From an uncultured Armatimonadetes bacterium (GTDB lineage Bacteria > Armatimonadota > UBA5829 > DTJY01), in assembly GCA_963717145.1 (NCBI GenBank), contig OY970325.1, positions 4,352,001 through 4,416,000 of the forward strand: 64,000 nt of DNA. Reading direction: 5' to 3'. The stretch's first letter is position 1. Every line of letters begins with the position of its first letter. Shown here in pieces: positions 1 to 64,000 of this stretch. The notes beneath the pieces are model-generated. The model was not told the DNA's origin and searched no databases. It worked only from the letters and a program-made list of their open reading frames with translations. The position numbers were made by a program, and so were the translations under genes.

Positions 1-750
1 AGCTGATTCGGCCTCAGGAATGACATAAATCACGACGAGTTCCGGCCGCTCGCTGCCCCATTCACTGCACCGGAAGTTGATGCCGCCGATGCTGTGGCCG
101 CCGATCGCCGTCCAGTCGAGCACGAGACCGTAGTTCTTGGTGGGGTTGTTCTGCCAGTATTGGCAGGCGGGGGTGACGTCCCACTCGTGCCAGCCGTTCA
201 CTTCCGTGCAGCGCTCAGTGTCTTCCAGCGTGTCGTGTCGGTCGGAGTTGGATCCCCGCGCGCCTGCTGTGGACCAGCCGACATACGGGTTGCAGGTCCG
301 ATAGACCCAGCACGCCCCGACTTCCAGTCCGCCCTCATCGCCGCCGGTGCCTTCCTGCCAGTTCGGCATGCATCGGTAGACCCCGACATCCAGCCAGTCT
401 CCAGTTGCGAAGTTGTAGGTTTCGAACTGGTAGAGCCTGAGGGTGGCCGACTTGATGCACGCGCCCGAAGGAAGCTGGCCCGTGAGATCGAACTTGATCA
501 GGGCGGTTCTGTCATGCGACGTTCGTTTCTGTACCCAGAACTCCTCGTCGGAGTTGCCGTAGTTGTAGTTGGGCGCATACTGGTCCAGGAACGTGTCGGT
601 GCAGCCTGAATAGCCGCCTGTCCCTTGTTTCAGGGTGATCGTCTGGGGCGTTGGTGAAGAAAGCGCGGTACCCAGACTCGCGCAAATCAGAGCGAGGGCG
701 AGGAGAGTGAGATGCGGCCCTCGAAACCGGCGCCAGCAGTAGCTTGGCAT
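1..750 (-). CDS. Secreted DNRLRE (CBM96-like) domain protein; 3' end lies outside the window
   Basis: Not in the ORF track. Translated by hand from ATG at 750 (RBS GGAGG): hydrophobic N-terminus, then TITLKQGTGGYSGCTDTFLDQ..NYG..RTALIKFDL..IKSATLRLY..WDVT..NYGLVL..RPELVVIY; open to base 1. Confidence 0.75.
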   Translation of the reverse strand, partial: MPSYCWRRFRGPHLTLLALALICASLGTALSSPTPQTITLKQGTGGYSGCTDTFLDQYAPNYNYGNSDEEFWVQKRTSHDRTALIKFDLTGQLPSGACIKSATLRLYQFETYNFATGDWLDVGVYRCMPNWQEGTGGDEGGLEVGACWVYRTCNPYVGWSTAGARGSNSDRHDTLEDTERCTEVNGWHEWDVTPACQYWQNNPTKNYGLVLDWTAIGGHSIGGINFRCSEWGSERPELVVIYVIPEAESA

Positions 751-825: not shown

Positions 826-870
826 AGTCTACCAGGTGGGAGGGCAGGTGTCAACTGGTATAATTACCAG
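826..870 (-). promoter_or_regulatory. sigma70-type promoter TTGACA-17-TAGACT with the palindrome CTGGTATAATTACCAG (855-870) abutting the -35
   Basis: Plus-strand tgtcaa 849-854 and agtcta 826-831; palindrome read directly. Confidence 0.65.
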
Positions 871-17364: not shown

Positions 17365-18684
17365 TCATGTCCGTTCGTCGATGACGCGCTTGGCCTTGCC
17401 CTCGCTCGCGGGCAGGCTGCCCGGCTCGGCGATCTCGATGTTGACGGTGAAGCCGACCTGCTCCCTGAGCTGCCTGCCGAGTTCCGCGCGCAGGTCGCGC
17501 AGGTGCTCGATCGAGCCGTCGAACTCCGACTTCGCGATCTCGACCTTCACCGTCATCTGGTCGAGCGATTCCTTCTTGCCGAGGCAGATGACGTAGTTCC
17601 CGCCGAGCCACTTGTGCCGCATCAGGACTTCCTCGATCTGGCTCGGGAAGACGTTCACGCCGCGGATGATCAGCATATCGTCCGAGCGGCCTACGAACCT
17701 CGCCAGTCGCGCATGTGCCCGCCCGCAGGGACACCCGTCACTCATGACGCGCGTCAGGTCGCGGGTCCGGTAGCGGATGATCGGCATCGCGGTCCGGCGG
17801 AGCGTGGTCATGACCAGCTCGCCGACCTCTCCGGGCTTGACCGGCTGCAGCGTCTCCGGGTTGATGATCTCGACGAGATACGAGTCCTCCCAGATGTGCA
17901 TACCGTCCTGCTGCTCGCACTCGAACGCCACGCCCGGGCCGTTCATCTCGCTCAGCCCGTAGCTGTTGAACACCTTGAAGCCGTAGAGGTCCTGGAGCTT
18001 GAGGCGCATCTCCTCGGTGTACGGCTCGGCCCCGAGCGCCGCGATCTTGAATCCCGAGGGATCGGGGGTCGTCGCCCTCCTGGACCATTCGCTCGGCGAC
18101 GTGCATGGCGTAGCTCGGTGTCGCGTGGATGACGGTGACGTGGAAGTCGCGGATGAGCGTGATCTGGCGCGCGGTGTTCCCCGCGCCGGCCGGGATGATC
18201 CACATCCCGAGCCGCTCGGCGCCGTAGTGCAGTCCGAGGCCGCCGGTGAAGAGGCCGTAGCCGCTCATGTTCTGGAAGACGTCGTGCGGGCGAGCGCCGG
18301 CCATCGTGGAGGCATCGGGCCATCAGCTCGGCCCAGTTGTCGACGTCCTCGCGCGTGTGGAAGATGGCGGTCGGCTTGCCGGTCGTGCCGCTCGAGGTGT
18401 GCATGCGGATGATCTCCTCGGGCGCGACGGAGAGCATCCCGGTGGGATAGCTGAGCCTGAGGTCGTCCTTGGATGGTCAACGGCAGTCGGGCGGCATCAT
18501 CGAGCGACTCTGATGTCCCCCGGCTCGACGCCGACTTCCTTGAGCTTCGATGCGTACCACGGCGACTTCTTCGCCTGCTCGACGATCGCTTGAGCGCCTC
18601 GACCTGCCAGTCGGTCAACTCATCGCGCGACATCCGCTCGAAGCGCCCACCGATTCTCTCGTCCAGCTGTTCCGTCGTGATCAT
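17365..18684 (-). CDS. paaK: Phenylacetate-CoA ligase-like enzyme, broken by several frameshifts
   Basis: HTSSGTTGKP, GYGLFTGGLG, YGLSEMNGPG, RYRTRD and GRSDDMLIIRGVNVFP spread over ORFs 17365-18009, 17738-18304, 17952-18437 and 18265-18735. Confidence 0.8.
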
Positions 18685-20447: not shown

Positions 20448-21577
20448 CTACTTCCACTTATGCTCGAACTTCTGGAGGCTGTCGTAGCCGCGCCACATCA
20501 TCAGGTGGTCGACGAGCGTCATCGCCACCATCGACTCCGCGACCGGGATGATCCTCGACAGCAGGGTGGGGTCGCGGCGGGTGATCGCCCCCAGCGGCGT
20601 CTCCTTCATCTTCTCCATGTCGATCGATGGCTGCTCGACCGACACCGTCGGCGTCGGCTTGACGGCCATCCGCATCACGAGATCCTCACCGTTCGAGATG
20701 CCGCCCAGGAATCCGCCGGAGTTGTTCGTCTTGAAGCGCACCTTGCCGTTCTCATCGAGGTACGGGAAGTCGTTGCGACTCCGAGCCCTTCATCTCAGCG
20801 ACCTTGAAGCCCGCGCCGAACTCGAGGCCCTTGATCGCGCCGATGCTCATCAGCGCGTGCGCGAGGCACGCGTTCAGCTTGTCGAACACCGGCTCACCGA
20901 GGCCCGCGGGGACTCCGTGCGCGATGATCTCGACGATTCCCGCCGGCGGTCTCGCCCTCGTCCTTGATCTCCATCACGCGGGCGATCATCTTCTCCGCGG
21001 CCTCCTGGTCGGGGCAGATGATCATGTTCCTGTGGGCCTCCTCGTCGATCTTCTCGAACGGAGGGATGTTCGTCGCCTCGATGCCCATGCACGCCTTCGT
21101 GTAGCCGACGACCTGGATGCCTTCGGTCGCCAGGATCTTCTTCGCGAGTGCCCCCGCCGCCACGCGCATGCACGTCTCACGGCCGCTCGCACGTCCCGCG
21201 CCGCACCAGTCGGCATAGTCGCCGTACTTGATGAAGAAGGTGTACTCCGCGTGGCCGGGCCGGATCAGGTCCTTCACGTCGCGATACTGCTGGACGTGGA
21301 TGTCGTGCCGATCGACATTGTAGATGATCATGCCGACCGGAGCGCCGGTGGTCTTGCCCTCGAGCATGCCCGAGACGATGTGGACCTGGTCGGTCTCCAT
21401 TCTCGGCGAATCGAGCGGCGTCTGACCGGGCCGTCTGCGGTCGAGGTCATGCTGGATGTCGGCGTCGCATAATTCCATGCCGGCCGGCACGCCGTCTACT
21501 ATGCAGAGCAGCGCGTCACCATACGACTCGCCGCATGCGGTCACTCTGAATACTCTTCCGAATGTGTTTCCTAGCAA
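20448..21577 (-). CDS. aroC: Chorismate synthase, frameshifted near 20940 and 20790
   Basis: GNTFG..GES.G, RRRPGQ, RPGHA, RET, NNSGG.LGGISNG, AVKPTP. Confidence 0.88.
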
Positions 21578-23938: not shown

Positions 23939-24859
23939 TTACTTCCTGCGGCGAATCAGGCCCATCAGGCCGAAGAGTCCTGTGCCGAGAGCCAGAAGGC
24001 TCGAAGGCTCAGGAACGACGCCTTCGCCTGAGAAGACGATGTCATCAACCCACGCGTTGGTCGCGAAGGTTGAGCCGCTGCCAACGTACAGCCCGACGAA
24101 CCTCTTCAGGTTGTTGTACCTGGCCGCACCAGAACCGCAGTCCAGCCTGGCGTTCGGCATCGGGTTCATGGGGTCCATGTTGATGTAGACGTTGGCGCTC
24201 ATCGTTCCTGCTACGGGGTCGCCGTACCAATAGATCGCCATCTCGTTCCATCCCGCATACGGTCTGCGAGGAGCGGGAGCAAGGCCGGCTGTGGTCAGCG
24301 TGTAACCAGTCACGGTGCTATTTGTACCCGAACCGTCCATCACAACCAAGCCGCTGCTGGCATAGGTCGTCCAGAACGCGCCACGGGTATCTGTGATACC
24401 TGCGGCCAGGGCATAGGTTACGGCTCCGGAATCACCCGCGATACCCCAACCACCAGTGTCGGACATCACGCCGACTCGGGTGTCTACCTTGCTGGTCTGT
24501 AATACGCCGCCTACCGTGGGATACGGATCATATATCCAAGCGGAGACCATGCCGGTGTAATACGCACTGCCTGTCAGGTTATAGGGTCTGAGGTCCTTCT
24601 TCATGACAGAGCGGAGGCCACCAGGCTGCAGTGCCGCCTTGGTTCCCGAGATGCCGTCCGATGACGGGGCCACGGAGATCCTCGGCGAGCCGTTCACAGT
24701 ACCGCCAGTCTGGACCCAGCCCTTGTTGCCGGCGATATTCATGCCAGCGTAACCATAGTCGAAGTTCTCCGACCAGTTGATGGCATACTGCGCGCACGCC
24801 GGAACTGCGAGTGCGATCACGATGGCCATTGCGGCCACCATCATCAGTACTTTCTTCAT
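23939..24859 (-). CDS. PEP-CTERM sorting-domain surface protein
   Basis: Signal peptide MKKVLMM..AVPACA; C-terminus VPEPSSLLALGTGLFGLMGLIRRRK. Confidence 0.93.
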   Translation of the reverse strand: MKKVLMMVAAMAIVIALAVPACAQYAINWSENFDYGYAGMNIAGNKGWVQTGGTVNGSPRISVAPSSDGISGTKAALQPGGLRSVMKKDLRPYNLTGSAYYTGMVSAWIYDPYPTVGGVLQTSKVDTRVGVMSDTGGWGIAGDSGAVTYALAAGITDTRGAFWTTYASSGLVVMDGSGTNSTVTGYTLTTAGLAPAPRRPYAGWNEMAIYWYGDPVAGTMSANVYINMDPMNPMPNARLDCGSGAARYNNLKRFVGLYVGSGSTFATNAWVDDIVFSGEGVVPEPSSLLALGTGLFGLMGLIRRRK

Positions 24860-25093: not shown

Positions 25094-25154
25094 ATGATAC
25101 ACCCAGTTCAAGTTCTTGTCAAGCCCTACGGCGAAAAACCAGCAAAAATACCTG
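25094..25154 (-). promoter_or_regulatory. Box CAGGTATTTTTGCTGG -16- TTGACA -17- TATCAT
   Basis: Box 25139-25154, -35 at 25117-25122, -10 at 25094-25099. Confidence 0.75.
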
Positions 25155-25244
25155 GTTCCGACATAGAACTGAGTGGCAGCCGCCCGTACAAGCGCCAGTT
25201 TACGCCTGCGCCACAGATATGTCAAGGCTGTGTCATCCGGGCGT

Positions 25245-25851
25245 CAGGACGAACGCATCAAAACACAACGATGCTTCGGTAGCAGAGGCCCGGCGGCGCT
25301 GCCGAAGCATGTCACGACACCGTGGTGCTTCGGCAGCGCCGCCGGGCCTCTGCTACCGAAGCATCGTACTCCCGAGTCGAGACGATTGGTGCTTCGGCAG
25401 CGCCGCCGGGCCTCTGCTACCGAAGCATCGTACTCCCGAGTCGAGACGATTGGTGCTTCGGCAGCGCCGCCGGGCCTCTGCTACCGAAGCATCGTACTCC
25501 CGAGTCGAGACGATCGGTGCTTCGGCAGCGCCGCCGGGCCTCTGCTACCGAAGCATCGTACTCCCGAGTCGAGACGATCGGTGCTTCGGCAGCGCCGCCG
25601 GGCCTCTGCTACCGAAGCATCGTACTCCCGAGTCGAGACGATCGGTGCTTCGGCAGCGCCGCCGGGCCTCTGCTACCGAAGCATCGTACTCCCGAGTCGA
25701 GACGATTGGTGCTTCGGCAGCGCCGCCGGGCCTCTGCTACCGAAGCATCGTACTCCCGAGTCGAGACGATTGGTGCTTCGGCAGCGCCGCCGGGCCTCTG
25801 CTACCGAAGCATCGTACTCCCGAGTCGAGACGATTAGATGCGTTCGCCCTG
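25245..25851. repeat. Composite palindromic element: 15-bp terminal inverted repeats, one inverted 40-bp unit, then 8 tandem copies of a 64-bp unit (25323-25834)
   Basis: Period of 64 checked at 25323, 25387 ... 25771; ends caggacgaacgcatc / gatgcgttcgccctg. Confidence 0.95.
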
Positions 25852-25939: not shown

Positions 25940-28197
25940 ATGAGCACGAGGAATACTCCAGCGGAAAACCGGTCAGGCGGATACGTTCTGCCTCTCATCG
26001 TAACAGCTCTGATCCTGTCCACGCTGATATCATACCGGCACATAACCCGCAACGGCTTTGTCTTCGACGACACACTGTATCTTGTCGAGAATCCCCACGT
26101 TCAGCAGGGCATCGGACCTGCTGCGGTGAAGTGGGCATTCACCACCTTCTACGGCGCGAACTGGCAGCCCCTCACATGGCTCTCGGAGATGCTGGACTAT
26201 CGCCTGTACGGCTCCAATCCCCTCGGACACCACGCGACCAATCTCGTGTTCCACATCGCGAACATCGTCCTGCTGCTTATTGTCCTGCGGCGAATGACGG
26301 GGTCCGTATGGAAGAGCGCTTTCGTGGCGGCTATCTTTGCCCTCCATCCGCTGCACGTCGAGTCAGTGGCCTGGGCGGCCGAGCGCAAGGACGTCCTGAG
26401 CACCTTCTTCATGCTGGTCGCCATCTGGGGGTATTGGAGGTATACGGAGCGTCCGAGTCTGCGAAGGTACCTGCTCGTTGCGTTTGCGTTTGCGCTCGGG
26501 CTAATGGCCAAGCCGATGCTGGTCACTCTGCCGATCTTGCTCCTGTTGCTCGACTATTGGCCGCTTCGGCGACTTCAGTCGCCAGGGAGGCCGTTGAAGG
26601 CCTCCCCTACGGCGCTCATCATGGAGAAAGTCCCTCTAGTTGCCCTCAGTTTCGCGTCATGCGTGATAACCTATCTGGCTCAGCGAAGCGGAGGAGCCGT
26701 GATTCAACTGGAGAAGTTCCCCATCGGGCTTCGAGTTGCCAACGCTGTGGTGGCTTACTCCGCTTACGTCTGGAAGGCCATCTGGCCGACGGGGCTGGCC
26801 GCGTACTATCCGTACCCCAAGGCAGGCGTGCCGGTGCTCTCTCTGGTCATCGCGCTGGCCGTGATGGCGGGTGTGACCGTGCTTGTGATCAGGCAGGTGA
26901 GATCTCGACCATACCTGGCCGTCGGGTGGCTGTGGTACGTCATCACGCTCATCCCCGTCATCGGACTCGTCCAAGTCGGCGAGCAGTCCATGGCCGACAG
27001 ATACATGTACATCCCGCTCATCGGGCTGTCGATCATGATCGCCTGGGGCATTCCGGACCTTCTGATGCGCCGGGCCGCCTCTCGCTCACTCGTCCGACTG
27101 CCCTGGCATTGGCAGGTGCTTCCGGGCTGGTTGTAGTCGCGCTCATGGTGGCGACATCGGCTCAGGTGAGATATTGGGAGAGCAACTACACTCTGTTCGG
27201 GCGAGTCGTGAGGGTTACCGGGGGCAGTGCCCTCGCGTTCAGCAACTACGGCATTGCGCTGGCGGAGCGAGGCGAATATGATCAGGCGATCGAGCAGTAC
27301 AGGAAGGCAATAGAGGCCGATCCGTACTATGTGTATTCCTATCTGAACCTGGGTCACGCACTCAAGGAGATAGGAAGGCCCGAAGAGGCCCTGCTGCAGT
27401 ACCAGAAAGCGCTGGAGATCGACCCGGATTTCACAAACGCCTCACTTGCCGCCGCAAACATCATGGCGGAACAGGGGCACGGCGATCTGGCCGCCCTTGA
27501 ATACGCCAAGGCAGTGGAGTCCAGTCCTGATGACGCCTCAGCTCACGCCAACCTGGGGTTCTTTCTGTCCCGGCAAGGCAAGACGGATGAGGCCGTCGAC
27601 CACTTCAAACGAGCCATCGAGTTGAACCCCGGATTTTCCAAGGCGCATTACGGTCTGGCGATCATTGCTTTTCGGCGGGGTGACGCGGAGAGGGCTGGCG
27701 AGCATTTCAACGAAGCGCTGCGGATCGACCCGAACTACGTTGAGGCACATCACGGTCTGGGACTTGTGCTTCGCGCACAGGGTCGGACGGACGAGGCGGC
27801 ATCCCACTTCCAGATGGCGATCAGGCTGAAGCCGAACTTCGCGGAGGCGCACAATGATCTCGGCGTCCTCCTGGCACAGCAAGGCAGCGTAGATGAGGCG
27901 ATGGCGCATTTCGGCGATGCGGTCAGGTACAGCCCGGGGTTCGCCGAGGCGCGCTGCAATCTCGCTCTCGCGCTCATTTCAAAGAACGACATCGCTGGGG
28001 CGATTGCTGAGTACGAAAAGGCTATCGAGGCCGACCCCGATTATGTCCAGGCCCATGCCGGATTGGCAGGGGCGTTGTATGCGGCAGGTCGGTACGCAGA
28101 CGCCTGGCGCGAGGTGCGAATCGCGGAGCGCCACGGTATGAAGCCTCCTCCTGACTTCTTGAAGGCGCTTTCGTCCAAGATGCCGCCGGGACCGTGA
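25940..28197 (+). CDS. TMTC-like GT-C membrane glycosyltransferase with TPR repeats, copy 1, frameshifted near 27080
   Basis: FDD..Y, W.PLTWLS, HPLHVESVAW..ERKD, ADRYMY.P in 25838-27136; TPR half in the other frame up to 28197. Confidence 0.85.
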
Positions 28198-31964: not shown

Positions 31965-32165
31965 CCGGTAAAAATACCTGATTTCGTCCAAAACCATTGA
32001 CACATCAGCCATCCGGGTGTATACTCCAGAGTGTTACAGAATCGTCACATTTGTACCTTTCAAACTGAGCCCGAAACCGGGCAGAGCGAGTTCCCCGGCA
32101 GAAGCAGGTAAATTTACCTGATTTTGCGCCGAGGGCTTGACAAGACGGTGGCAAAAGTGTATACT
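31965..32165 (+). promoter_or_regulatory. Two tandem promoters, each box -16- TTGACA -17- TATACT
   Basis: CCGGTAAAAATACCTG 31965-31980, TTGACA 31997, TATACT 32020; CAGGTAAATTTACCTG 32105-32120, TTGACA 32137, TATACT 32160. Confidence 0.8.
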
Positions 32166-32459
32166 GCAAACGTACACTGAAGTACCAAGCCATCCATCCT
32201 TCGTTCGACAAACAGAAAGAAAAACCGTAACAGGTTTTCTCCATTTTCGAGTAAAAGTTTCTACAACGAGAGGCTCAGATCCGCAGAAAGGTCCGCGTCA
32301 GAGCTTTTCAAAGGAACCGAGGCAGTCGTTGCAGAAAATGGGTCCTGGTCCGTAGCCAGGAACAGGACCAGCGATGTGATCAGCCAGCGTGAGGCTTCGG
32401 CACTCACCGGCAAGGTTGCATCCTAGCCGTGCTCAGAAGCCACGAAGGGAGGTGACATT

Positions 32460-33176
32460 ATGAAGAAGGTTCTTGCAATCACCCTAATGCTGTTGCTTGT
32501 CGCAACAGCCGCTATGGCCGCTGAAAACAGTTGGCGCATTCTCCTGCTCGCCGATGACGGCTTTGGAAACAACGCCGGGTCCCGGCGCTACGTAGGCGTC
32601 GCACCGACGGGTCAGGAAGGCCTGGACAGCCAGGACGGCGCCACCGCCTCGTACGGCACTGACACTCCGGGTACGACCAACCTGTTGTCGGCTGTCGTCA
32701 CAGGTGCGACACCGCTCTACGGTAAGAGCATCAAGGCCGCGACGCTTCCCGTGCCTGAGAAGACATGGGATTTCTACGTGGCCGGCAATGCGAATGCCGT
32801 AGGTGAGGGGATCCGCATCAAAGCCATGACAGTGGCGAACCAGTTGCCGACCCCGACATTCGCCGGGGCTCCTGCTCCTCTCCAGTACGCCATCAGAATG
32901 GTCAACAACAGGGGCATGGTTGACGCACCGGCCAATGGTTCCTTGTGGTTGATTCCCACTCCGGCGGTCGGCACTGCGGGTAACGTGATGTTCTGGAGTT
33001 CGCCGATCAACCTGCCGAGGCTCAACCTCGCGGTGGGTACTTCGGCCCAGTTGGTAGCTAACGGCTACAAGCTCCAGTTCGTCCAGATGCCGCCGGTTCC
33101 CGAGCCGAGCGGTCTGCTTGCTCTTGGAGCAGGTCTCATGGGTCTGGTTGGATTCGTAACCAGACGCCGCAAGTAA
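32460..33176 (+). CDS. PEP-CTERM sorting-domain surface protein
   Basis: Signal peptide; VPEPSGLLALGAGLMGLVGFVTRRRK. Confidence 0.93.
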   Translation: MKKVLAITLMLLLVATAAMAAENSWRILLLADDGFGNNAGSRRYVGVAPTGQEGLDSQDGATASYGTDTPGTTNLLSAVVTGATPLYGKSIKAATLPVPEKTWDFYVAGNANAVGEGIRIKAMTVANQLPTPTFAGAPAPLQYAIRMVNNRGMVDAPANGSLWLIPTPAVGTAGNVMFWSSPINLPRLNLAVGTSAQLVANGYKLQFVQMPPVPEPSGLLALGAGLMGLVGFVTRRRK

Positions 33177-33503: not shown

Positions 33504-36500
33504 ATGCGCAAAACCACAGTTGGTCTTCTGATGGTAACGCTTCTGATCACCTTGGCAATCTGCGCGCATGCAGCGGTAGAGCTATACCAAGTCACAGCGA
33601 ATACCGTCGCGCCTGCGTTCGTAGACTACAAGCTGAACTGTCCTGCAGATGTGACCGTCAAAATCTTGCCGTGCGATGTGAACGGCATCATTTCCGGTCC
33701 CGCGATCAGGGAGGTCACCTTGCCCAAGCTAAGAGGTCCCAACAGATTCATCTGGATGGGGGACAAGGATGACCTCACTAATGCTCCGGTAGGCTATTAT
33801 GTCGCACAGGTCAGCGCGACGAGTAACCAGCAATACTGGGATCCGATCGTCGGTGTGTTCACCTATAATCAGATCCCTCCTACAACGGAGACGACTTTTC
33901 CCGCGCCGGGCATGGGGGATAGGAGCCTACCGGACCCACTTGATGGCCAGGGATTCTACGACATTGCCGTGAACACCCGCGAGGCAAGCCCGTACTACGG
34001 CAGAATCTATGTATCAGACAAGCAACAGACGGGTATCTTCATGTACGGCCCGGACGGCGAGTTCCTGGGTAAGTTGGACGACTCCCAAGTCGTCTGGCTG
34101 AGCGGCGACAGCTGCCCGTGGACTGTGTCGGTTGCGGATGACGACTTCGTCTATGTAACCAACCGATCGACCCGTAGGACCTTCTGCTTCAACGGCGCCG
34201 GTGCGCTGGTATCCAGCAGCCCCAACGTCACAGCTAGCCTGATGGACTATACCAAAGGCGCGTTCGCTCGCGTAGATGCAGCGACCGGCATCACCCATTT
34301 GTACTTCACCGGCGGTAAACCTTACGTTACCGGGACAACTCATTACACTGTCTCAGCCGACCATCTGACCTTCGCCTACGTCGGAGTCGCCTATAACAGC
34401 GGCACCAACGACGAGGCGTATGGCATGTGGGTTTCTCCCGACTTTAAGACCGCCTACCAGGCGAATCACGCGGGGGCCCTCGCCGGTGTCACCAAATGGG
34501 ATGACCCCGATCTCAATGGCGTCTTCGTGCGGGATGCGGCCTTCTTGAACGCTCCCAGCAGTCCTGCTAAGGATGTCACATTCGTCGACGGTCCCACTCC
34601 GTACCTGTGGGTCACCAGGCAGGTCCCCTACACAACCGACGACACCGCCACCACGGATGTGGTGGAGTATTCGAGATCCGTCGGTAAGTACGATCCGCTT
34701 ACCGGTGCTCTGATCGCTGACGCCCCGTATGACGTCGTCAGGCACGCTCACCTGAGCACCGTTGATGCCGTCGGAAACTTGGTTGTGACCTTCGCCAAGA
34801 ATAGTCCCACTTGGCCCCAGTACTACTGGGGTATGTTCGCTGAGGAAGGCACATACACTTGCTCGACTAAGACCACAGTCGTCTTCTATCTGTCGGCTCA
34901 GCCCGCGCCGGTAATAATCCCGAACAGCGCGGTATGGACTCCCGACAACGAGATCAAAGCGGACGACTCCGACTCCGCATCCGTCACCTTCAAGGTGCTG
35001 GACGTCAATGGTTATGCGGATATCACCAGCGTAAAGCTCGATCTGGCCCCGCTTGGCTATGCCAGCGACCAGGCATGCACGCTTGCGAAGGATCCTGGCG
35101 ATACCACAGACAAGATCAAGACTGCGACTGTGACCGGGATCAAGGCAAAGGTGGGCGCTCGCTGCACCACCAGTCCCGGCCAGGCGCCTCATTATCTCGT
35201 TGCAACGGCAACAGATTCGACGGCGCAGACTAACATTGACTCTAGTGAGATCAAGCTGAAAGTCACCGGTGTGCTGAGTGCCTCGTCCCAATTGCCGGCC
35301 CTTTCTGCCTACACCGTCCATTCGAGAAACACCGGTTGGAACATAGCGAGTGCCAACATCGTGGCAGTCGGTGGCGGCATCCCCGGCGCGACCGATCCTC
35401 GGGCAGCCGGTCCGTTCACCTACACCTCGCTTAATACCGTGGACGGCTTCCAGTGGCTCGAGACCAGTGCCGGTCAGTTTAATGTGGTCGGTAAGAAGGT
35501 CGGCTTCGGCGACTCAGAGGTGGTCCCCGTTGACACAGCGATGTACTCGGACCCGGAGCCTGCGAAGACTCTCTATCTGCAGCCACTGACGATCGCGGAG
35601 GCCAAGGACCTCGTCAAGACTCCGAACGGCACGATGGCCAACGTCGAGGCCGTCTGCTACGCACCGCCCATGGGCCTTAACCCGACTCTTGCGGACGGCC
35701 TGTACGTCAGGACGGATACCCAGGCCAAGCGCAACCAGTGGTACATGTGCGATCCGGACGATCCCGCGAACGGCATGGTGTTCATGGTCACACAGAGTGG
35801 CCCTGGGTTCTTTCCTCAGTGGGACAACGTTCTCGGCAAAGAGCCTCCCCCGAGAACGGCGTTCACGTCCTACATGGGCAAGAGGCCGGCTTTGGGCGAG
35901 ACCATCATGGTCACCGGTCTGATCGACATGCCGCCCGGCCACGAGCGTAGGGTGCTGCTTCAGAACACTGAGATCATCAACGCAATCAGGAATTCTCCGT
36001 CGACCATTACGCAGTGGTACTACAATGCTCAGCCGAACCCCGGCGTTGGACTGCCTACAACTCCGGTCACGTTGACGATCCCGCAGATCTACACGCCCAT
36101 CACGCAGAGCTTCAGCGAGCATTGGGGCAAGTTCGCCCAGGTCACCGACGCAACCGTCATCGCCTACAATGCGGCCGGCGAGGAGGTCGGCGTAGCGGTT
36201 CCGCCTACGACGGACCCTGTTCCCTACTTGACGATAGCGAACGTGGCCGGTAACACGACCATGGTTGCCATCGACATGCCGACAAGTCTGGGCAGTCCGA
36301 CGATCCCTGCAATCGGAGGGACGTACACATTCACAGGCGCCGTGGGCCGCAGGGCCAGGTATGGCGGTAGCGCTCTCCGAGTCAGAGGCGCTGGCGACAT
36401 GGTTCTGACGACACCTGCTCCTGCCGCTCCGAGTCCGTTGAGTGTGATTCGCACCTTGAACGACAACGATCCGGTCAATATCTCCGGTATCGTTGTCCAC

Positions 36501-37727
36501 AAGGCCGGAACCTCGATGTGGATCGAAGCTGCTGACAGAAGCGTCGGCATTCGCGTCAGGAAGAACTACTCATGGGTAACCTGCGACACAACTAACAAGG
36601 TTGGCGACATCATCCAGGTCGTTGGCACCATGGACCTGTGGGATGGTGAGATGACCATCGTCCCGACGCTGCCCGCGATAGTACTGAGCAGCGGTAACCC
36701 ATGGCCCGGCGTACTCGACATACGGTCGAGGGAGATCGGTGGAAACGCAAGCGGAACGACCCCGGGTGTGACCAACGGACGCGGCGCTCTGAACGTCGGT
36801 CTGAAGGTTCACTTCTCGGGCATGGTCACCGCAGTCGATCCCGCCGCTACCAAGACATGGTACTACCTGTGGGACGGCGCTAACAGAGCGGACCAGCCTG
36901 TCTCTGATGGCAGTGGCAACATCGGAATCCACGTCGAAGCCGCACCGCCTGCCGGCTGTGTGCCGTGGCAGACATGGGTCGACGTCACCGCTGTCGTAGG
37001 GACCGATGGGAACTTCGTTGCGGGGTCTGTCATACCGACCCTGCTTCCAACTGCCACGGCTACCAAGGTCACCGCGTTCGACACGATCACCGCTGCTTCG
37101 GGAACGGCACTGACGGCTCTTTGGAACCTGATGTCCGTGCCCGCAGTGCCTGCCGCAACTGGCACCGGCGGTGAGTGGGACGCCAAGTCCTTCGAACCGT
37201 ATGTGGTGTTCAGCCCGACCGCGGATCCGAACGACATCGACGGCCGCATGTACCGATGGGAGAACTGCACGGGCAGTCTCTACCTTTGGGATCAGTGGAG
37301 TGAAGTCGGCTCGCACGGCCCGTTCGGTGCAGTAGTGCTTGGCGATGGTTACTGGATGCAGCTCGACGCCGACAAGGCAGTCAGCTACAGTGGGAGAAAC
37401 AGTGCGCTCGATCAGTGGACCGGCATCTGCTCTCCCGGCTGGATGATCATCGGTCATCCCAAGGACCACAACGTCTACCTGGACGAGGTGAAGGTGCATG
37501 ACGGCGGCGCAGTCTACAGCATGTACGATGCGATAATGTCCAACCTGTGGATCGACTGCACAGGTTTCTGGTGGGATAACTCCACCCAGAGTCTGACGGA
37601 CGTCGGCATCCCTGACTGCTGGTGCAGCTCGGACACCCTGCTGCCGTGGCACGGTTACTGGATACAGACCTATCAGGGTGATCTTGCTCTGATCACTCCT
37701 GAGGCTACTGAGTGGCCCCGGCCATAG
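33504..37727 (+). CDS. Large secreted multidomain surface protein (FlgD-Ig-like N-terminus, propeller-like region, OB-fold-like repeats)
   Basis: Signal peptide; YKLN..ADVTVKI..NRFIW.G..AP.GYY; WIEAADRSVGIRV..GD.IQV.G; C-terminal GDGYW/PWHGYW motifs. Confidence 0.8.
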   Translation: MRKTTVGLLMVTLLITLAICAHAAVELYQVTANTVAPAFVDYKLNCPADVTVKILPCDVNGIISGPAIREVTLPKLRGPNRFIWMGDKDDLTNAPVGYYVAQVSATSNQQYWDPIVGVFTYNQIPPTTETTFPAPGMGDRSLPDPLDGQGFYDIAVNTREASPYYGRIYVSDKQQTGIFMYGPDGEFLGKLDDSQVVWLSGDSCPWTVSVADDDFVYVTNRSTRRTFCFNGAGALVSSSPNVTASLMDYTKGAFARVDAATGITHLYFTGGKPYVTGTTHYTVSADHLTFAYVGVAYNSGTNDEAYGMWVSPDFKTAYQANHAGALAGVTKWDDPDLNGVFVRDAAFLNAPSSPAKDVTFVDGPTPYLWVTRQVPYTTDDTATTDVVEYSRSVGKYDPLTGALIADAPYDVVRHAHLSTVDAVGNLVVTFAKNSPTWPQYYWGMFAEEGTYTCSTKTTVVFYLSAQPAPVIIPNSAVWTPDNEIKADDSDSASVTFKVLDVNGYADITSVKLDLAPLGYASDQACTLAKDPGDTTDKIKTATVTGIKAKVGARCTTSPGQAPHYLVATATDSTAQTNIDSSEIKLKVTGVLSASSQLPALSAYTVHSRNTGWNIASANIVAVGGGIPGATDPRAAGPFTYTSLNTVDGFQWLETSAGQFNVVGKKVGFGDSEVVPVDTAMYSDPEPAKTLYLQPLTIAEAKDLVKTPNGTMANVEAVCYAPPMGLNPTLADGLYVRTDTQAKRNQWYMCDPDDPANGMVFMVTQSGPGFFPQWDNVLGKEPPPRTAFTSYMGKRPALGETIMVTGLIDMPPGHERRVLLQNTEIINAIRNSPSTITQWYYNAQPNPGVGLPTTPVTLTIPQIYTPITQSFSEHWGKFAQVTDATVIAYNAAGEEVGVAVPPTTDPVPYLTIANVAGNTTMVAIDMPTSLGSPTIPAIGGTYTFTGAVGRRARYGGSALRVRGAGDMVLTTPAPAAPSPLSVIRTLNDNDPVNISGIVVHKAGTSMWIEAADRSVGIRVRKNYSWVTCDTTNKVGDIIQVVGTMDLWDGEMTIVPTLPAIVLSSGNPWPGVLDIRSREIGGNASGTTPGVTNGRGALNVGLKVHFSGMVTAVDPAATKTWYYLWDGANRADQPVSDGSGNIGIHVEAAPPAGCVPWQTWVDVTAVVGTDGNFVAGSVIPTLLPTATATKVTAFDTITAASGTALTALWNLMSVPAVPAATGTGGEWDAKSFEPYVVFSPTADPNDIDGRMYRWENCTGSLYLWDQWSEVGSHGPFGAVVLGDGYWMQLDADKAVSYSGRNSALDQWTGICSPGWMIIGHPKDHNVYLDEVKVHDGGAVYSMYDAIMSNLWIDCTGFWWDNSTQSLTDVGIPDCWCSSDTLLPWHGYWIQTYQGDLALITPEATEWPRP

Positions 37728-37926: not shown

Positions 37927-38289
37927 ATGGAGTCGGAACTCGAGAAGATCGACATCATACGCAGCAGGTTCAGGGTCGGATACGACGAGGCCGTCCAGGC
38001 GCTTTGCGCCACCGATGGCGATGTCGTCAAGGCTCTGGTCTGCTTCGAGAGGAAGAATGGGACTCGGCCCGATCTGCTGGCACTCGGGATGGAGATGATC
38101 GACGAGGCACAGCGGGTTGCTGCCGGCTCACCGGTCAAGCGGTTGAAAATCAGATATGGCGACAGGACTGTAACGGATACCCCCGTAACCTTGACGGCGG
38201 CCGCTGCTCTCGCTATCGGCGTGGCGGCGGTGCTGATCAGCAAGCTGGTTATCGAACTGGTCAAAGACGAGGAAGAGGCTAACGGATGA
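37927..38289 (+). CDS. DUF4342-like protein with an N-terminal UBA-like helical domain
   Basis: LEKIDIIR.R..VGY.EA..AL....GDVV.AL; promoter TTGCCT-17-TATAAT at 37882-37910. Confidence 0.7.
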   Translation: MESELEKIDIIRSRFRVGYDEAVQALCATDGDVVKALVCFERKNGTRPDLLALGMEMIDEAQRVAAGSPVKRLKIRYGDRTVTDTPVTLTAAAALAIGVAAVLISKLVIELVKDEEEANG

Positions 38290-38978
38290 GTGACCTTGTG
38301 GATGATCTCCCGCTGCAGAAAGCCCGGACCTCGAGCATACTGTCCTCCCTTGCTCGACATGCGAAATACGACCACCTGCTCGACGCCGAAGTTGTAAGGC
38401 GGGCACAGACAGGCGCGGAGGACGCCGCCGAGCACCTGTTGTACAAATATCGAAACCTCGTTCGCAACAAAGTCAGATCATACTTCCTGATCGGCGCGGA
38501 AAAGGAAGACCTCCTCCAGGTCGGCATGATAGGACTCTGGCAGGCGATGGTCGATTACCGCGCGGACAAGGCCATCTCTTTCCCCGCCTTTGCCCGAATT
38601 TGCATCCAGCGGCACATTATCACGGCAATAAAGACGGCTACCCGGCAGAAACAGATTCCGCTCAACACGTCTCTTTCGCTCGAGTCGCCCTCCGATGAGT
38701 CCAACTCCGAATGGACCCTTTCCGACATACTGACATCGGAGGACACCGTCGATCCTGAAGAACTGGTTCTCAGGAGAGAGGACTCGCAGCAACTCCACGA
38801 CATGCTTCAGCAGGTGCTGAGTGACTTCGAGTGGCGAGTGCTCTCCGGGTACAAAGTCGGCAAATCATATCGAGAGATCGCCACCGAACTGCAGTGCAAG
38901 ACCAAGTCGGTGGACAATGCACTCGCGCGGATCAAGCGCAAAGTATCCGGCACACCCTTCGACATGATCGAGCACTGA
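38286..38978 (+). CDS. sigH: RNA polymerase sigma factor, SigH type
   Basis: YFLIGAEKEDLLQ.GMIGL, TAIKTATRQKQIPLN, KSVDNAL.RIKRK. Confidence 0.92.
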   Translation: MSDLVDDLPLQKARTSSILSSLARHAKYDHLLDAEVVRRAQTGAEDAAEHLLYKYRNLVRNKVRSYFLIGAEKEDLLQVGMIGLWQAMVDYRADKAISFPAFARICIQRHIITAIKTATRQKQIPLNTSLSLESPSDESNSEWTLSDILTSEDTVDPEELVLRREDSQQLHDMLQQVLSDFEWRVLSGYKVGKSYREIATELQCKTKSVDNALARIKRKVSGTPFDMIEH

Positions 38979-58704: not shown

Positions 58705-60401
<1,697 letters not shown>

Positions 60402-63261: not shown

Positions 63262-63322
63262 CTGGTATTTGTACCGGTCTTTCGCCATAGGGATTGACAA
63301 GAAGTCGAACCGGGTGTAACAT
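63262..63322 (+). promoter_or_regulatory. Box CTGGTATTTGTACCGG -16- TTGACA -17- TAACAT
   Basis: Box 63262-63277, -35 at 63294-63299, -10 at 63317-63322. Confidence 0.75.
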
Positions 63323-63389: not shown

Positions 63390-64000
63390 ATGAAGCGCCT
63401 GTTGGTTATGGCGGCCGCAGTGGCCTTCGTCGCCGCACTCGCAGTTCCGGCGTGCGCGCAGTTTGACATCAACTCGCACGAGGATTTCAGTTGGGGTGTC
63501 GCTGGCAGCAATGTCGCCGGCAATAGAGGCTGGGTCCAGTGCGGCGGTACTGTTAGCGCCTCGCCAAGAGTCTCCATGGCCCCGACATCGGACGGCACCT
63601 CATGGAGTAAGGCGGCACTGCAGCTAGGCGGCTATCGGTCAGCGATGAAGAGGGATCTCACGCAGTTACCGTGGTTCTCGAACTTGTTTGATTATACGTA
63701 TTACACTGGCATGGTGTCCGCTTGGGTATATGATCCGTATCCTACAGACAGCAACGATGCGGTGCTCGCTAATAGGGTTGATACCCGAGTCGGCATGATC
63801 TCCAACACCGGCACTACCCAAGGTGATTCCGGAGCCATGACCTATGTAATGGCGGCAGGTATCACGGATACGCGTGGCCCGTACTGGACGGCCTACGCCA
63901 GTAGCGGCTCCGTTGTGATGAACGGTTCGGGTGCCGGCGCTGGAATATCCAGCGCTACCGGTTACACGCTGACCACAGCCGGCATGGCCCCCGCTGTTCG
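63390..64000 (+). CDS. Paralog of the 23939-24859 PEP-CTERM protein, truncated by the window end
   Basis: Not in the ORF track; MKRLLVM..AVPACAQ..GWVQ.GGTV..SPR..YYTGMVSAW.YDPYPT..VDTRVG..AAGITDTRG..GYTLTTAG matches that protein; the PEP-CTERM tail itself is not visible. Confidence 0.88.
   Translation, partial: MKRLLVMAAAVAFVAALAVPACAQFDINSHEDFSWGVAGSNVAGNRGWVQCGGTVSASPRVSMAPTSDGTSWSKAALQLGGYRSAMKRDLTQLPWFSNLFDYTYYTGMVSAWVYDPYPTDSNDAVLANRVDTRVGMISNTGTTQGDSGAMTYVMAAGITDTRGPYWTAYASSGSVVMNGSGAGAGISSATGYTLTTAGMAPAV

Follow-up and report, generated by a model that had tools for sequence, protein, structure and literature searches.

A 16-bp palindrome that recurs at promoters throughout the genome of an uncultured Armatimonadota bacterium is probably (we put the likelihood at about 0.7) an operator bound by stand-alone LuxR-type helix-turn-helix (HTH) proteins of a single family, which are predicted to activate mostly genes for secreted proteins. 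The window analyzed, a 64-kb stretch of DNA, is part of a single 5.37-Mb contig (genome G000), and coordinates given without a genome prefix are those of the window.

The preliminary description of the window had claimed that four promoters share one geometry, in which a box lies 16 bp upstream of a TTGACA −35 element that is followed, after 17 bp, by the −10 element. When the sequence was reread, all four boxes were found at the positions given for them and with this spacing. Two stand in tandem before a plus-strand gene (32460..33176) that encodes a 238-aa signal-peptide protein with a PEP-CTERM tail. Box 1 (31965-31980, 22.7 bits) has a T-rich tract on its promoter side (31981-31985) and lies 16 bp from the TTGACA at 31997, which a 17-bp spacer separates from the TATACT at 32020; this upstream sigma70-type promoter (31997-32025, plus strand) is predicted from sequence only. 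Box 2 (32105-32120, 22.4 bits) is a perfect palindrome with ATTTT next to it (32121-32125), and the predicted downstream promoter of the same gene (32137-32165, plus strand) begins 16 bp past it, with TTGACA at 32137, a spacer of 17 bp, and TATACT at 32160. The third box (25139..25154; 16.8 bits, two mismatches) would act on the minus strand, where it has TTTTT on its promoter side and is followed after 16 bp by a sigma70-type promoter (25094..25122; TTGACA at 25122, 17 bp, TATCAT) and a gene for a 306-aa PEP-CTERM protein (23939..24859). The fourth (63262..63277, 21.3 bits) lies 16 bp before a plus-strand promoter (63294..63322; TTGACA at 63294, 17 bp, TAACAT) and a plus-strand gene cut by the window end (63390..64000), the 319-aa product of which is a PEP-CTERM paralog of the 24859 protein (62% identity), with its tail located beyond the window. 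An identical box and promoter also precede the next paralog downstream. The count of four was nevertheless incomplete, since a perfect fifth box (855..870, 25.0 bits) had been overlooked. It abuts the −35 element (gap of 0, center at about −43.5) of a minus-strand sigma70-type promoter (826..854; TTGACA-17-TAGACT), and the window-cut gene that follows (1..750, minus strand) encodes a 970-aa signal-peptide protein with matches to CBM96 and fibronectin III domains and no PEP-CTERM tail.

The 32460 and 24859 proteins both scored above the cutoffs for TIGR02595 and PF07589, which identifies them as PEP-CTERM proteins (C-terminal PEP motif, transmembrane segment, and basic tail). Their alignment was limited to this C-terminal end, in keeping with the earlier statement that the 32460 protein is unlike the other two outside the shared ends; as had been argued, the sharing of the box therefore goes beyond gene duplication. 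The window holds 12 promoter-like sequences (TTGAC-N16-18-TAnnnT), four with a box at a gap of 16 bp, one with a box at a gap of 0, and seven with none, and the promoters of aroA, murA, the XRE gene, and groES, said to lack the box, are all among these seven.

Several other features of the window were recorded. The region before the 32460 gene (32240-32460) is strongly conserved in G006, a genome of another genus; it has a possible closing stem and no Rfam match, and it could be a structured regulatory leader. Across the whole window, Rfam gave zero matches. A dyad, TGTnAC-N6-GTnACA, lies just past the 31997 promoter (32032-32049) and is conserved in G006, and conserved text related to it follows the 25122 and 63294 promoters; we rejected it as the motif of a second regulon because it is present only once in the genome. 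Between the 24859 promoter and the next genes lies a GC-rich repeated array (25240-25830), which shows as repeated translated blocks in two overlapping open reading frames (ORFs). The 1407-aa window protein (33504-37727) had no match in Pfam or NCBIfam. A SigH-type sigma factor gene lies at 38286-38978 (NF006148 above cutoff), and SigH-type homologs were seen near the main ortholog of the LuxR-type family in 6 of 80 loci. Genes that appear to be frameshifted or split (at 17365-18009, 20894-21577, 25940-28197, and 58800-60332, plus rpoC of G000), namely, paaK, aroC, that of a TPR membrane protein, the groEL end, and rpoC, suggest assembly indel errors, which limit gene-level counts.

Over the whole genome, the motif has the consensus CHGGTA-W4-TACCDG, that is, C(T/C/A)GGTA-W4-TACC(A/G/T)G, with the CTG...CAG form the commonest. 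The exact pattern CNGGTA-N4-TACCNG occurs 64 times in the 5.37 Mb, compared with 1 to 12 times when the spacer is given any of 12 other lengths. Of these sites, 58 lie between genes, though intergenic DNA makes up 13% of the genome according to the calls of our own simple ORF caller. An iterated symmetric matrix found 124 sites at 13 bits or more (the score of a strong site unless stated otherwise), with 112 of them intergenic. At a score of at least 14, there were 118 sites, including 108 intergenic ones, whereas 20 column-shuffled matrices found means of 17.6 and 1.35, respectively.

The claim that the spacing is fixed at 16 bp did not survive the genome-wide count. Sorted by the gap between the box and the −35 element, 66 oriented box-promoter pairs fell at gaps of 15 to 17 bp (31 pairs), 0 to 1 (11 pairs), 26 to 27 (7 pairs), 38 to 39 (5 pairs), and 49 (4 pairs), with 8 pairs at other gaps, and there are boxes at sigma54 promoters as well. 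With start sites predicted by placing the −10 hexamer at −12 to −7, the box centers would lie at about −59.5 for gaps of 15 to 17, −43.5/−44.5 for 0 to 1, −70 for 26 to 27, −82 for 38 to 39, and −92.5 for 49. The class I-like geometry near −60 that had been suggested thus holds, on these predicted positions, for 31 of the 66 pairs, and most oriented boxes serve promoters of the TTGACA/TAnnnT type, again as described. Helical phasing past a gap of 20 was modest (mean cosine of 0.35 over 21 pairs). No target could be assigned to 40 of the 112 intergenic sites. An IS66 element at G000:C1 1299157 starts right after TTG at a gap of 16 from a strong box and apparently severs this box promoter from its signal-peptide gene.

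The bases flanking the box are themselves informative. Of 47 class I pairs, 45 had a T tract, defined as at least three T residues in the first five flanking bases, next to the box on the promoter side, and 6 had one on the far side; in pairs with a gap of 0 to 2, by contrast, it was on the far side in 8 of 12 (P = 4e-4). At −16 to −12 from the −35 element, all 29 box promoters carried the tract, compared with 40 of 393 boxless promoters. This tract presumably corresponds to the distal subsite of an UP element. Flanking T residues that shift together with the box, on a side set by the promoter, are what would be expected of a binding site for the RNA polymerase alpha C-terminal domain (alpha-CTD) beside an activator. 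Mean core mismatches were 0.45/1.52 in box promoters and 0.38/1.32 in boxless promoters, with a promoter definition that itself favored good cores; as the cores of box promoters are near consensus, they may not need activation.

To establish what the boxes serve, a genome-wide matrix scan for enrichment at PEP-CTERM or secreted-protein genes had been set in advance as a check, and it found enrichment. A box of at least 14 bits lay within 500 bp of 23 of 51 PEP-CTERM candidates and of 101 of 2721 other genes (odds ratio of 21; 2772 genes with at least 80 bp upstream, strand ignored, and a tail pattern that includes two doubtful calls). These 23 are a minority of the 124 genes that have such a box at this distance. 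The proposal of a regulon of exosortase-sorted proteins therefore held with respect to enrichment and failed with respect to exclusivity, most of the other clear targets being large secreted proteins without the tail. A signal-peptide heuristic marked 44 of 63 oriented targets (16 PEP-CTERM) as apparently secreted, compared with 548 of 2772 genes, and among promoter-bearing genes, this was true of 39 of 49 with a box and 67 of 406 without one. We scanned 40 non-PEP targets (37 of the 56 listed plus 3 from the list of oriented pairs, a selection biased to long or signal-peptide proteins) against Pfam and found six beta-helix, five GHL10-like, four amidase, two FGE-sulfatase-like, and two collar-domain proteins; single matches to RCC1, LVIVD, subtilase, GDSL, polysaccharide deacetylase, cytochrome c, S1, GT2, IS66 transposase, CBM96/fn3, and carboxypeptidase-regulatory-like domains; and 10 proteins with no match. 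Because the targets are spread over so many families and biased toward secretion, the regulon, as predicted here, is that of the secretome broadly, beyond exosortase substrates alone. An exosortase-like gene was detected in the genome by motif search only. Two shared C-terminal domain types were seen to end many large secreted proteins (about 64 genes genome-wide), one type in about 30 to 45 proteins and a tryptophan-rich type in 14, and 19 of the 64 genes have an upstream box.

The preliminary description had proposed an uncharacterized dimeric factor whose gene cannot be identified in the window. Both points are supported, and the rest of the genome and its relatives allow a stand-alone LuxR-type HTH family to be named with fair odds. 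G000 has three such genes, all outside the window (G000:C1 1246404-1246667, 1250426-1250674, and 995991-996248), encoding proteins of 87, 82, and 85 aa, respectively, with an identical recognition helix and PF00196 scores of 73.5 to 75.5 bits against a cutoff of 23.5. The segment after the recognition helix was invariant in 20 aligned family members. LuxR-type HTH proteins dimerize, and dimer binding is what we predict for this family at the palindromic 6-4-6 box. The 82- to 87-aa proteins gave HTH matches only and no autoinducer-binding domain, no receiver domain was found in the paralogs, and the family alignment contained no conserved cysteine. Among 80 loci of the main ortholog, we saw no luxI partner among the conserved neighbors, no kinase among the commonest neighbors, and no constant partner gene, the best neighbors being present in 21, 15, 14, and 13 loci. 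A NarL-type response regulator (G000 74422) was set aside as the binder; it has no strong box nearby and sits in a separate kai cluster.

Boxes also occur upstream of the regulator genes themselves. The gene for the 82-aa paralog has a near-perfect box 78 bp upstream, that for the 85-aa paralog has a weak box at gap 38, and paralog-gene boxes in G001, G005, G006, and G010 have full class I geometry. A box lay within 500 bp of 11 of 42 paralog genes (a subset of those listed, with kin that are not independent), compared with 161 of 2772 G000 genes (5.8%). Such boxes suggest feedback. For the main ortholog, a strong upstream box (score of at least 11) was present in only 11 of 112 cases, and the box could not be linked with one paralog clade, given the poor resolution of the tree built from 76 LuxR rows (87 columns). 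When DNA upstream of 40 family genes, the majority of them from other classes, was searched for palindromes without a seed, the result was CccGTAanntTACggG, with a log-likelihood of 95.5, compared with 50.9 downstream and 30 to 42 in three shuffles, and this motif correlated with the G000 matrix (r = 0.86) better than did any of 2000 permutations.

Within the class, the box and the LuxR-type family have largely the same distribution. Across 53 class genomes, the pattern of box, T tract, gap of 15 to 17, and TTGAC was found in 32 of 45 with the family and in none of the 8 without it, while a reversed control pattern gave one hit across all of them. The strict palindrome was present in 36 of 38 LuxR-positive genomes and in 1 of 8 LuxR-less genomes; in a set of 41 relatives, 34 had it (controls, 0 to 1). 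An RpoC tree of 27 rows, from which G000, G025, and G035 were left out because of split matches, placed six of the eight LuxR-less genomes on three separate branches, one of them nested among box-rich sisters, so that the association amounts to three losses among kin that are not independent. All two to four paralogs are missing in each of these three boxless lineages. Five LuxR-less genomes that were tested keep 56 to 124 ordinary sigma70 promoters, and of five examined for PEP-CTERM matches, two, G008 and G039, keep 22 and 33, respectively; the box thus tracks the regulator and not the targets. The correspondence has exceptions: the class I pattern is missing from 13 of the 45 class genomes that are LuxR positive, G033 and G011 are LuxR positive and have no strict palindrome, and LuxR-less G008 retains two intergenic boxes, both at duplicated loci. 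G006 retains both the box at 25154 and the tandem pair before 32460, although the flanks have diverged there, and box-promoter pairs in tandem were seen in G005, G010, and G032 as well. Taken as sequence evidence, these results indicate that the palindrome is a real, genome-wide, class-conserved intergenic motif at fixed promoter distances.

Of 193 genomes from outside the class, 82 encode the LuxR-type protein; the strict motif there was at background (98 hits versus 88 for the control), as was the class I pattern (one hit each in 18 of 193 genomes and 16 control hits). In G057, a genome without the family, we saw nine intergenic-looking matches with an AT-rich center. At four of these loci (L162, L166, L170, and L174), three of the matches form the center of a more extended inverted repeat, and no promoter was seen at any gap from the four; we therefore rejected them as operators; they probably represent a separate hairpin family.

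Boxes at sigma54 promoters form a second group. Besides rpoN, G000 encodes three sigma54 activators, and 31 sigma54 promoter sequences lie between its genes; such a sequence is present at 12 PEP-CTERM genes. In four cases out of the 31, the first base of the box is the C of the −12 element, and the box covers −12 to +4; at 9 others, a box of at least 9 bits starts 19 to 72 bp upstream. The overlapping arrangement recurs in 15 of 53 class genomes, including 7 of the 10 that belong to the taxonomic family; the 8 LuxR-less genomes all lack it, and controls were at 0. Many of the overlapped promoters lead to small-RNA-like units of 65 to 110 nt with an anti-Shine-Dalgarno core and a terminator. 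Such units are present in 20 of 53 class genomes, often in tandem; those of G000 lie at G000:C1 4126070(−), 4125874(−), 3764492(+), 3764905(+), 4341232(+), 1523043(+), and 3591340(−), and seven loci searched had no Rfam match. Among 35 copies, 14 have a box of at least 11 bits and 21 score below 5, with none between, a split that marks the box as more than a by-product of the sigma54 consensus. The seeds of all seven G000 RNAs pair better with the start regions of PEP-CTERM genes than with those of other genes (P = 5e-6 to 8e-11, values to be read with ribosome-binding-site strength uncontrolled), and the ribosome-binding region of the 24859 gene ranks 7th of 4236 genes for predicted pairing with one RNA copy. 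Box-bearing and boxless PEP genes differ in pairing for one seed only (P = 0.016).

In the mechanism that we propose, a dimer of the 82- to 87-aa protein would bind the 6-4-6 box. At gaps of 15 to 17, 26 to 27, 38 to 39, and 49, it would hold the alpha-CTD on the downstream T tract (class I), and at gaps of 0 to 1, it would work in the manner of NarL at yeaR and ogt or of Mor at Mu Pm, the alpha-CTD making its contacts either upstream of the dimer or on the opposite face. At sigma54 promoters with a box over −12 to +4, the dimer would block melting and so repress. Its activity is probably set by the amount of protein, the paralog mix, or a partner, a guess that follows from finding no receiver or ligand domain, no conserved cysteine, and no constant neighbor.

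Several known systems resemble this arrangement in part. The CviR site CTGNCCNNNNGGNCAG is a 16-bp 6-4-6 palindrome with a CTG-N10-CAG frame like that of the box (PMC12114271), and the right half of the cepI box bound by CepR, TTACCAGTT, is identical to that of the box (PMC1766932). CviR and CepR sites adjoin or cover the −35 element, as some boxes do (PMC12114271, PMC1766932). Unlike those sites, the box has the inner triplets GTA/TAC, and the proteins predicted to bind it lack the autoinducer-binding domain; in having the 16-bp CTG-N10-CAG-type frame of quorum-sensing LuxR boxes, it is alike in shape and not identical. NarL of Escherichia coli, which controls a global regulon of about 100 genes, activates from a 16-bp site at −43.5/−44.5 (yeaR and ogt) and, through the alpha-CTD, at −67.5/−77.5 (PMC10853779, PMC7419079). 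It shares with the system proposed here a LuxR-type HTH and a 16-bp inverted repeat, and its −43.5/−44.5 positions match those predicted for the 11 boxes at gaps of 0 to 1. It differs in having a receiver domain and a kinase, a 7-2-7 site of other sequence, and upstream centers at −67.5 and −77.5, where those of the boxes would be at about −59.5, −70, −82, and −92.5. ComA of Bacillus subtilis is likewise a GerE/NarL/LuxR-family activator that binds two hexamers 4 nt apart, but it is a response regulator, its hexamer is TTGCGG, and it also uses a direct repeat (PMC4797271). At Mu Pm, the alpha subunit binds adenines just upstream of a 16-bp Mor dyad centered at −43.5, much as boxes at gaps of 0 to 1 have an A tract upstream; Pm has no −35 hexamer, whereas the box promoters keep theirs (PMC4390567).

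Closest in protein architecture are regulators made of an HTH alone. Mor is not known to share the LuxR-type fold. GerE (PDB 1fse; E = 2.5e-10) is, as a whole protein, one LuxR-type HTH and is as sensorless as the paralogs; it works with a sporulation sigma factor. PedR of Synechocystis is also a single LuxR-type HTH with no sensor domain, and it activates some genes and represses others plus its own operon; unlike the family here, it forms a dimer through a redox cysteine, and it binds a nonpalindromic 12-mer (PMC13421787). The family described here has two to four paralogs and a predicted secretome-wide regulon. In the literature covered, which takes in few subscription journals and excludes supplements, we found neither this motif or regulon, in work on Armatimonadota and on stand-alone LuxR regulons, nor any regulon described for Armatimonadota. 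The single paper found on an Armatimonadota LuxR protein concerns another protein and another site: FG214 of Fimbriimonas, an HTH-PAS protein whose site is GC rich, bears no relation to the box (bioRxiv 10.64898/2026.03.15.711900).

The same LuxR-type factor might bind the box and mainly repress, acting from the UP-element region, by abutting the −35 element, or in the sigma54 melting region. The near-consensus promoter cores, the repressor position of the box at overlapped sigma54 promoters, and the example of PedR, a stand-alone protein that does both (PMC13421787), would all fit. We nonetheless consider this unlikely, as the sites are concentrated at a small number of upstream gaps that differ by roughly a helical turn, the box rarely overlaps or follows the sigma70 core (7 of 459 promoters, at gaps of −26 to −35), and the T tract follows the promoter direction and moves with the box, which fits cooperation with the alpha-CTD and not occlusion. 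It is improbable, too, that another conserved regulator binds the box, with the stand-alone LuxR genes as targets that were lost together with it. The boxes upstream of the LuxR genes fit targets as well as they fit autoregulation, and genomes from outside the class, in which the regulon was not seen, often encode the LuxR protein too; yet all two to four paralogs are gone from each of the three boxless lineages, and the shape of the box matches LuxR-family sites. CRP, Fur, and GerE-domain proteins were the transcription factors profiled. Fur is missing in four of five LuxR-less genomes tested, and a fur gene lies 110 bp from one box, but over the 10 genomes compared, the Fur profile did not fit: G008 has Fur and no class I box and G018 has boxes and no Fur match. 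CRP/FNR was rejected because the only PF13545 match was weak and to an Lrp/AsnC protein, with no CRP-family gene in the genome. LexA/SOS was rejected because none of three lexA-like genes or uvrB has a box, motif searches for recA, uvrA, and ruvB having given no hits; dnaK and rpoA have none either.

Activation by the LuxR-type family was also weighed against two explanations that dispense with it. It seems highly improbable that a PrsR-like sigma54 activator uses the box as its enhancer, as in the proteobacterial PEP-CTERM system. G000 does have rpoN, sigma54 activators, and sigma54-type PEP-CTERM genes, and at 5 of these 12 genes, a box starts 30 to 72 bp upstream, but most oriented boxes are at sigma70-type promoters, and those over −12 to +4 cannot be enhancers. 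Motif 1 of Haft et al., which has TTTACA at its end and precedes the sigma54 motif by about 63 nt, differs from the box (PMC1569441). What the PrsK/PrsR/PrsT system shares with ours is a common upstream motif that marks many single-gene PEP-CTERM units and a regulator proposed by matching its phyletic profile to that of the motif; what sets it apart is an NtrC-type regulator and another motif, whereas here the promoters are mainly sigma70, the regulator is of the LuxR type, and many targets lack PEP-CTERM (PMC1569441). Least credible of all is that the boxes are footprints or ends of mobile elements that target promoters. A second genomic match exists for 31 of 224 flanks, 11 of which have more than four matches, but 193 of the 224 flanks are single copy, and an abutting duplication of 5 to 9 bp was found at none of 112 sites, on which grounds we rejected an IS or MITE origin. 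The boxes are, moreover, kept at orthologous promoters across genera while their flanks diverge, and such an origin leaves the other gaps, the sigma54 overlap, and the profile match unexplained.

Preferring activation by the stand-alone LuxR-type family, we infer both the identity of the regulator and the direction of control, and the system would then be a variant of LuxR/NarL-type activation in which a sensorless family presides over a secretome-wide regulon. A more ambitious and only tentative reading makes this family a master switch of the cell surface in one Armatimonadota class, acting on two sigma factors. It would activate sigma70 promoters by the dozen, those of genes for secreted and PEP-CTERM proteins, while shutting sigma54 promoters; among the transcripts thereby silenced would be small RNAs with a predicted ability to keep these PEP-CTERM mRNAs from being translated. 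If true, this would be a coherent feed-forward loop that toggles two surface programs, and the first global regulon described for Armatimonadota, as far as our literature coverage reaches; the loop is hypothetical, given that pairing differs for one seed only and with ribosome-binding-site strength uncontrolled.

Armatimonadota are widespread and barely studied, and a candidate regulator and its probable site can now be named for one of their lineages. Class I and NarL-type geometry, complete with a putative alpha-CTD tract, can be read from the sequence of the promoters themselves, and activation at sigma70 promoters may be linked to repression at sigma54 promoters. The regulon, with about 70 to 110 probable targets, lists a co-regulated secretome of GHL10-like hydrolases, amidases, beta-helix proteins, and adhesin-like proteins and may aid in assigning roles to proteins that lack annotation. 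Haft et al. anticipated in 2006 that more PEP-CTERM motifs and regulators were to be found outside Proteobacteria (PMC1569441), and the box and the LuxR-type family would answer, for one lineage, how PEP-CTERM genes are controlled there.
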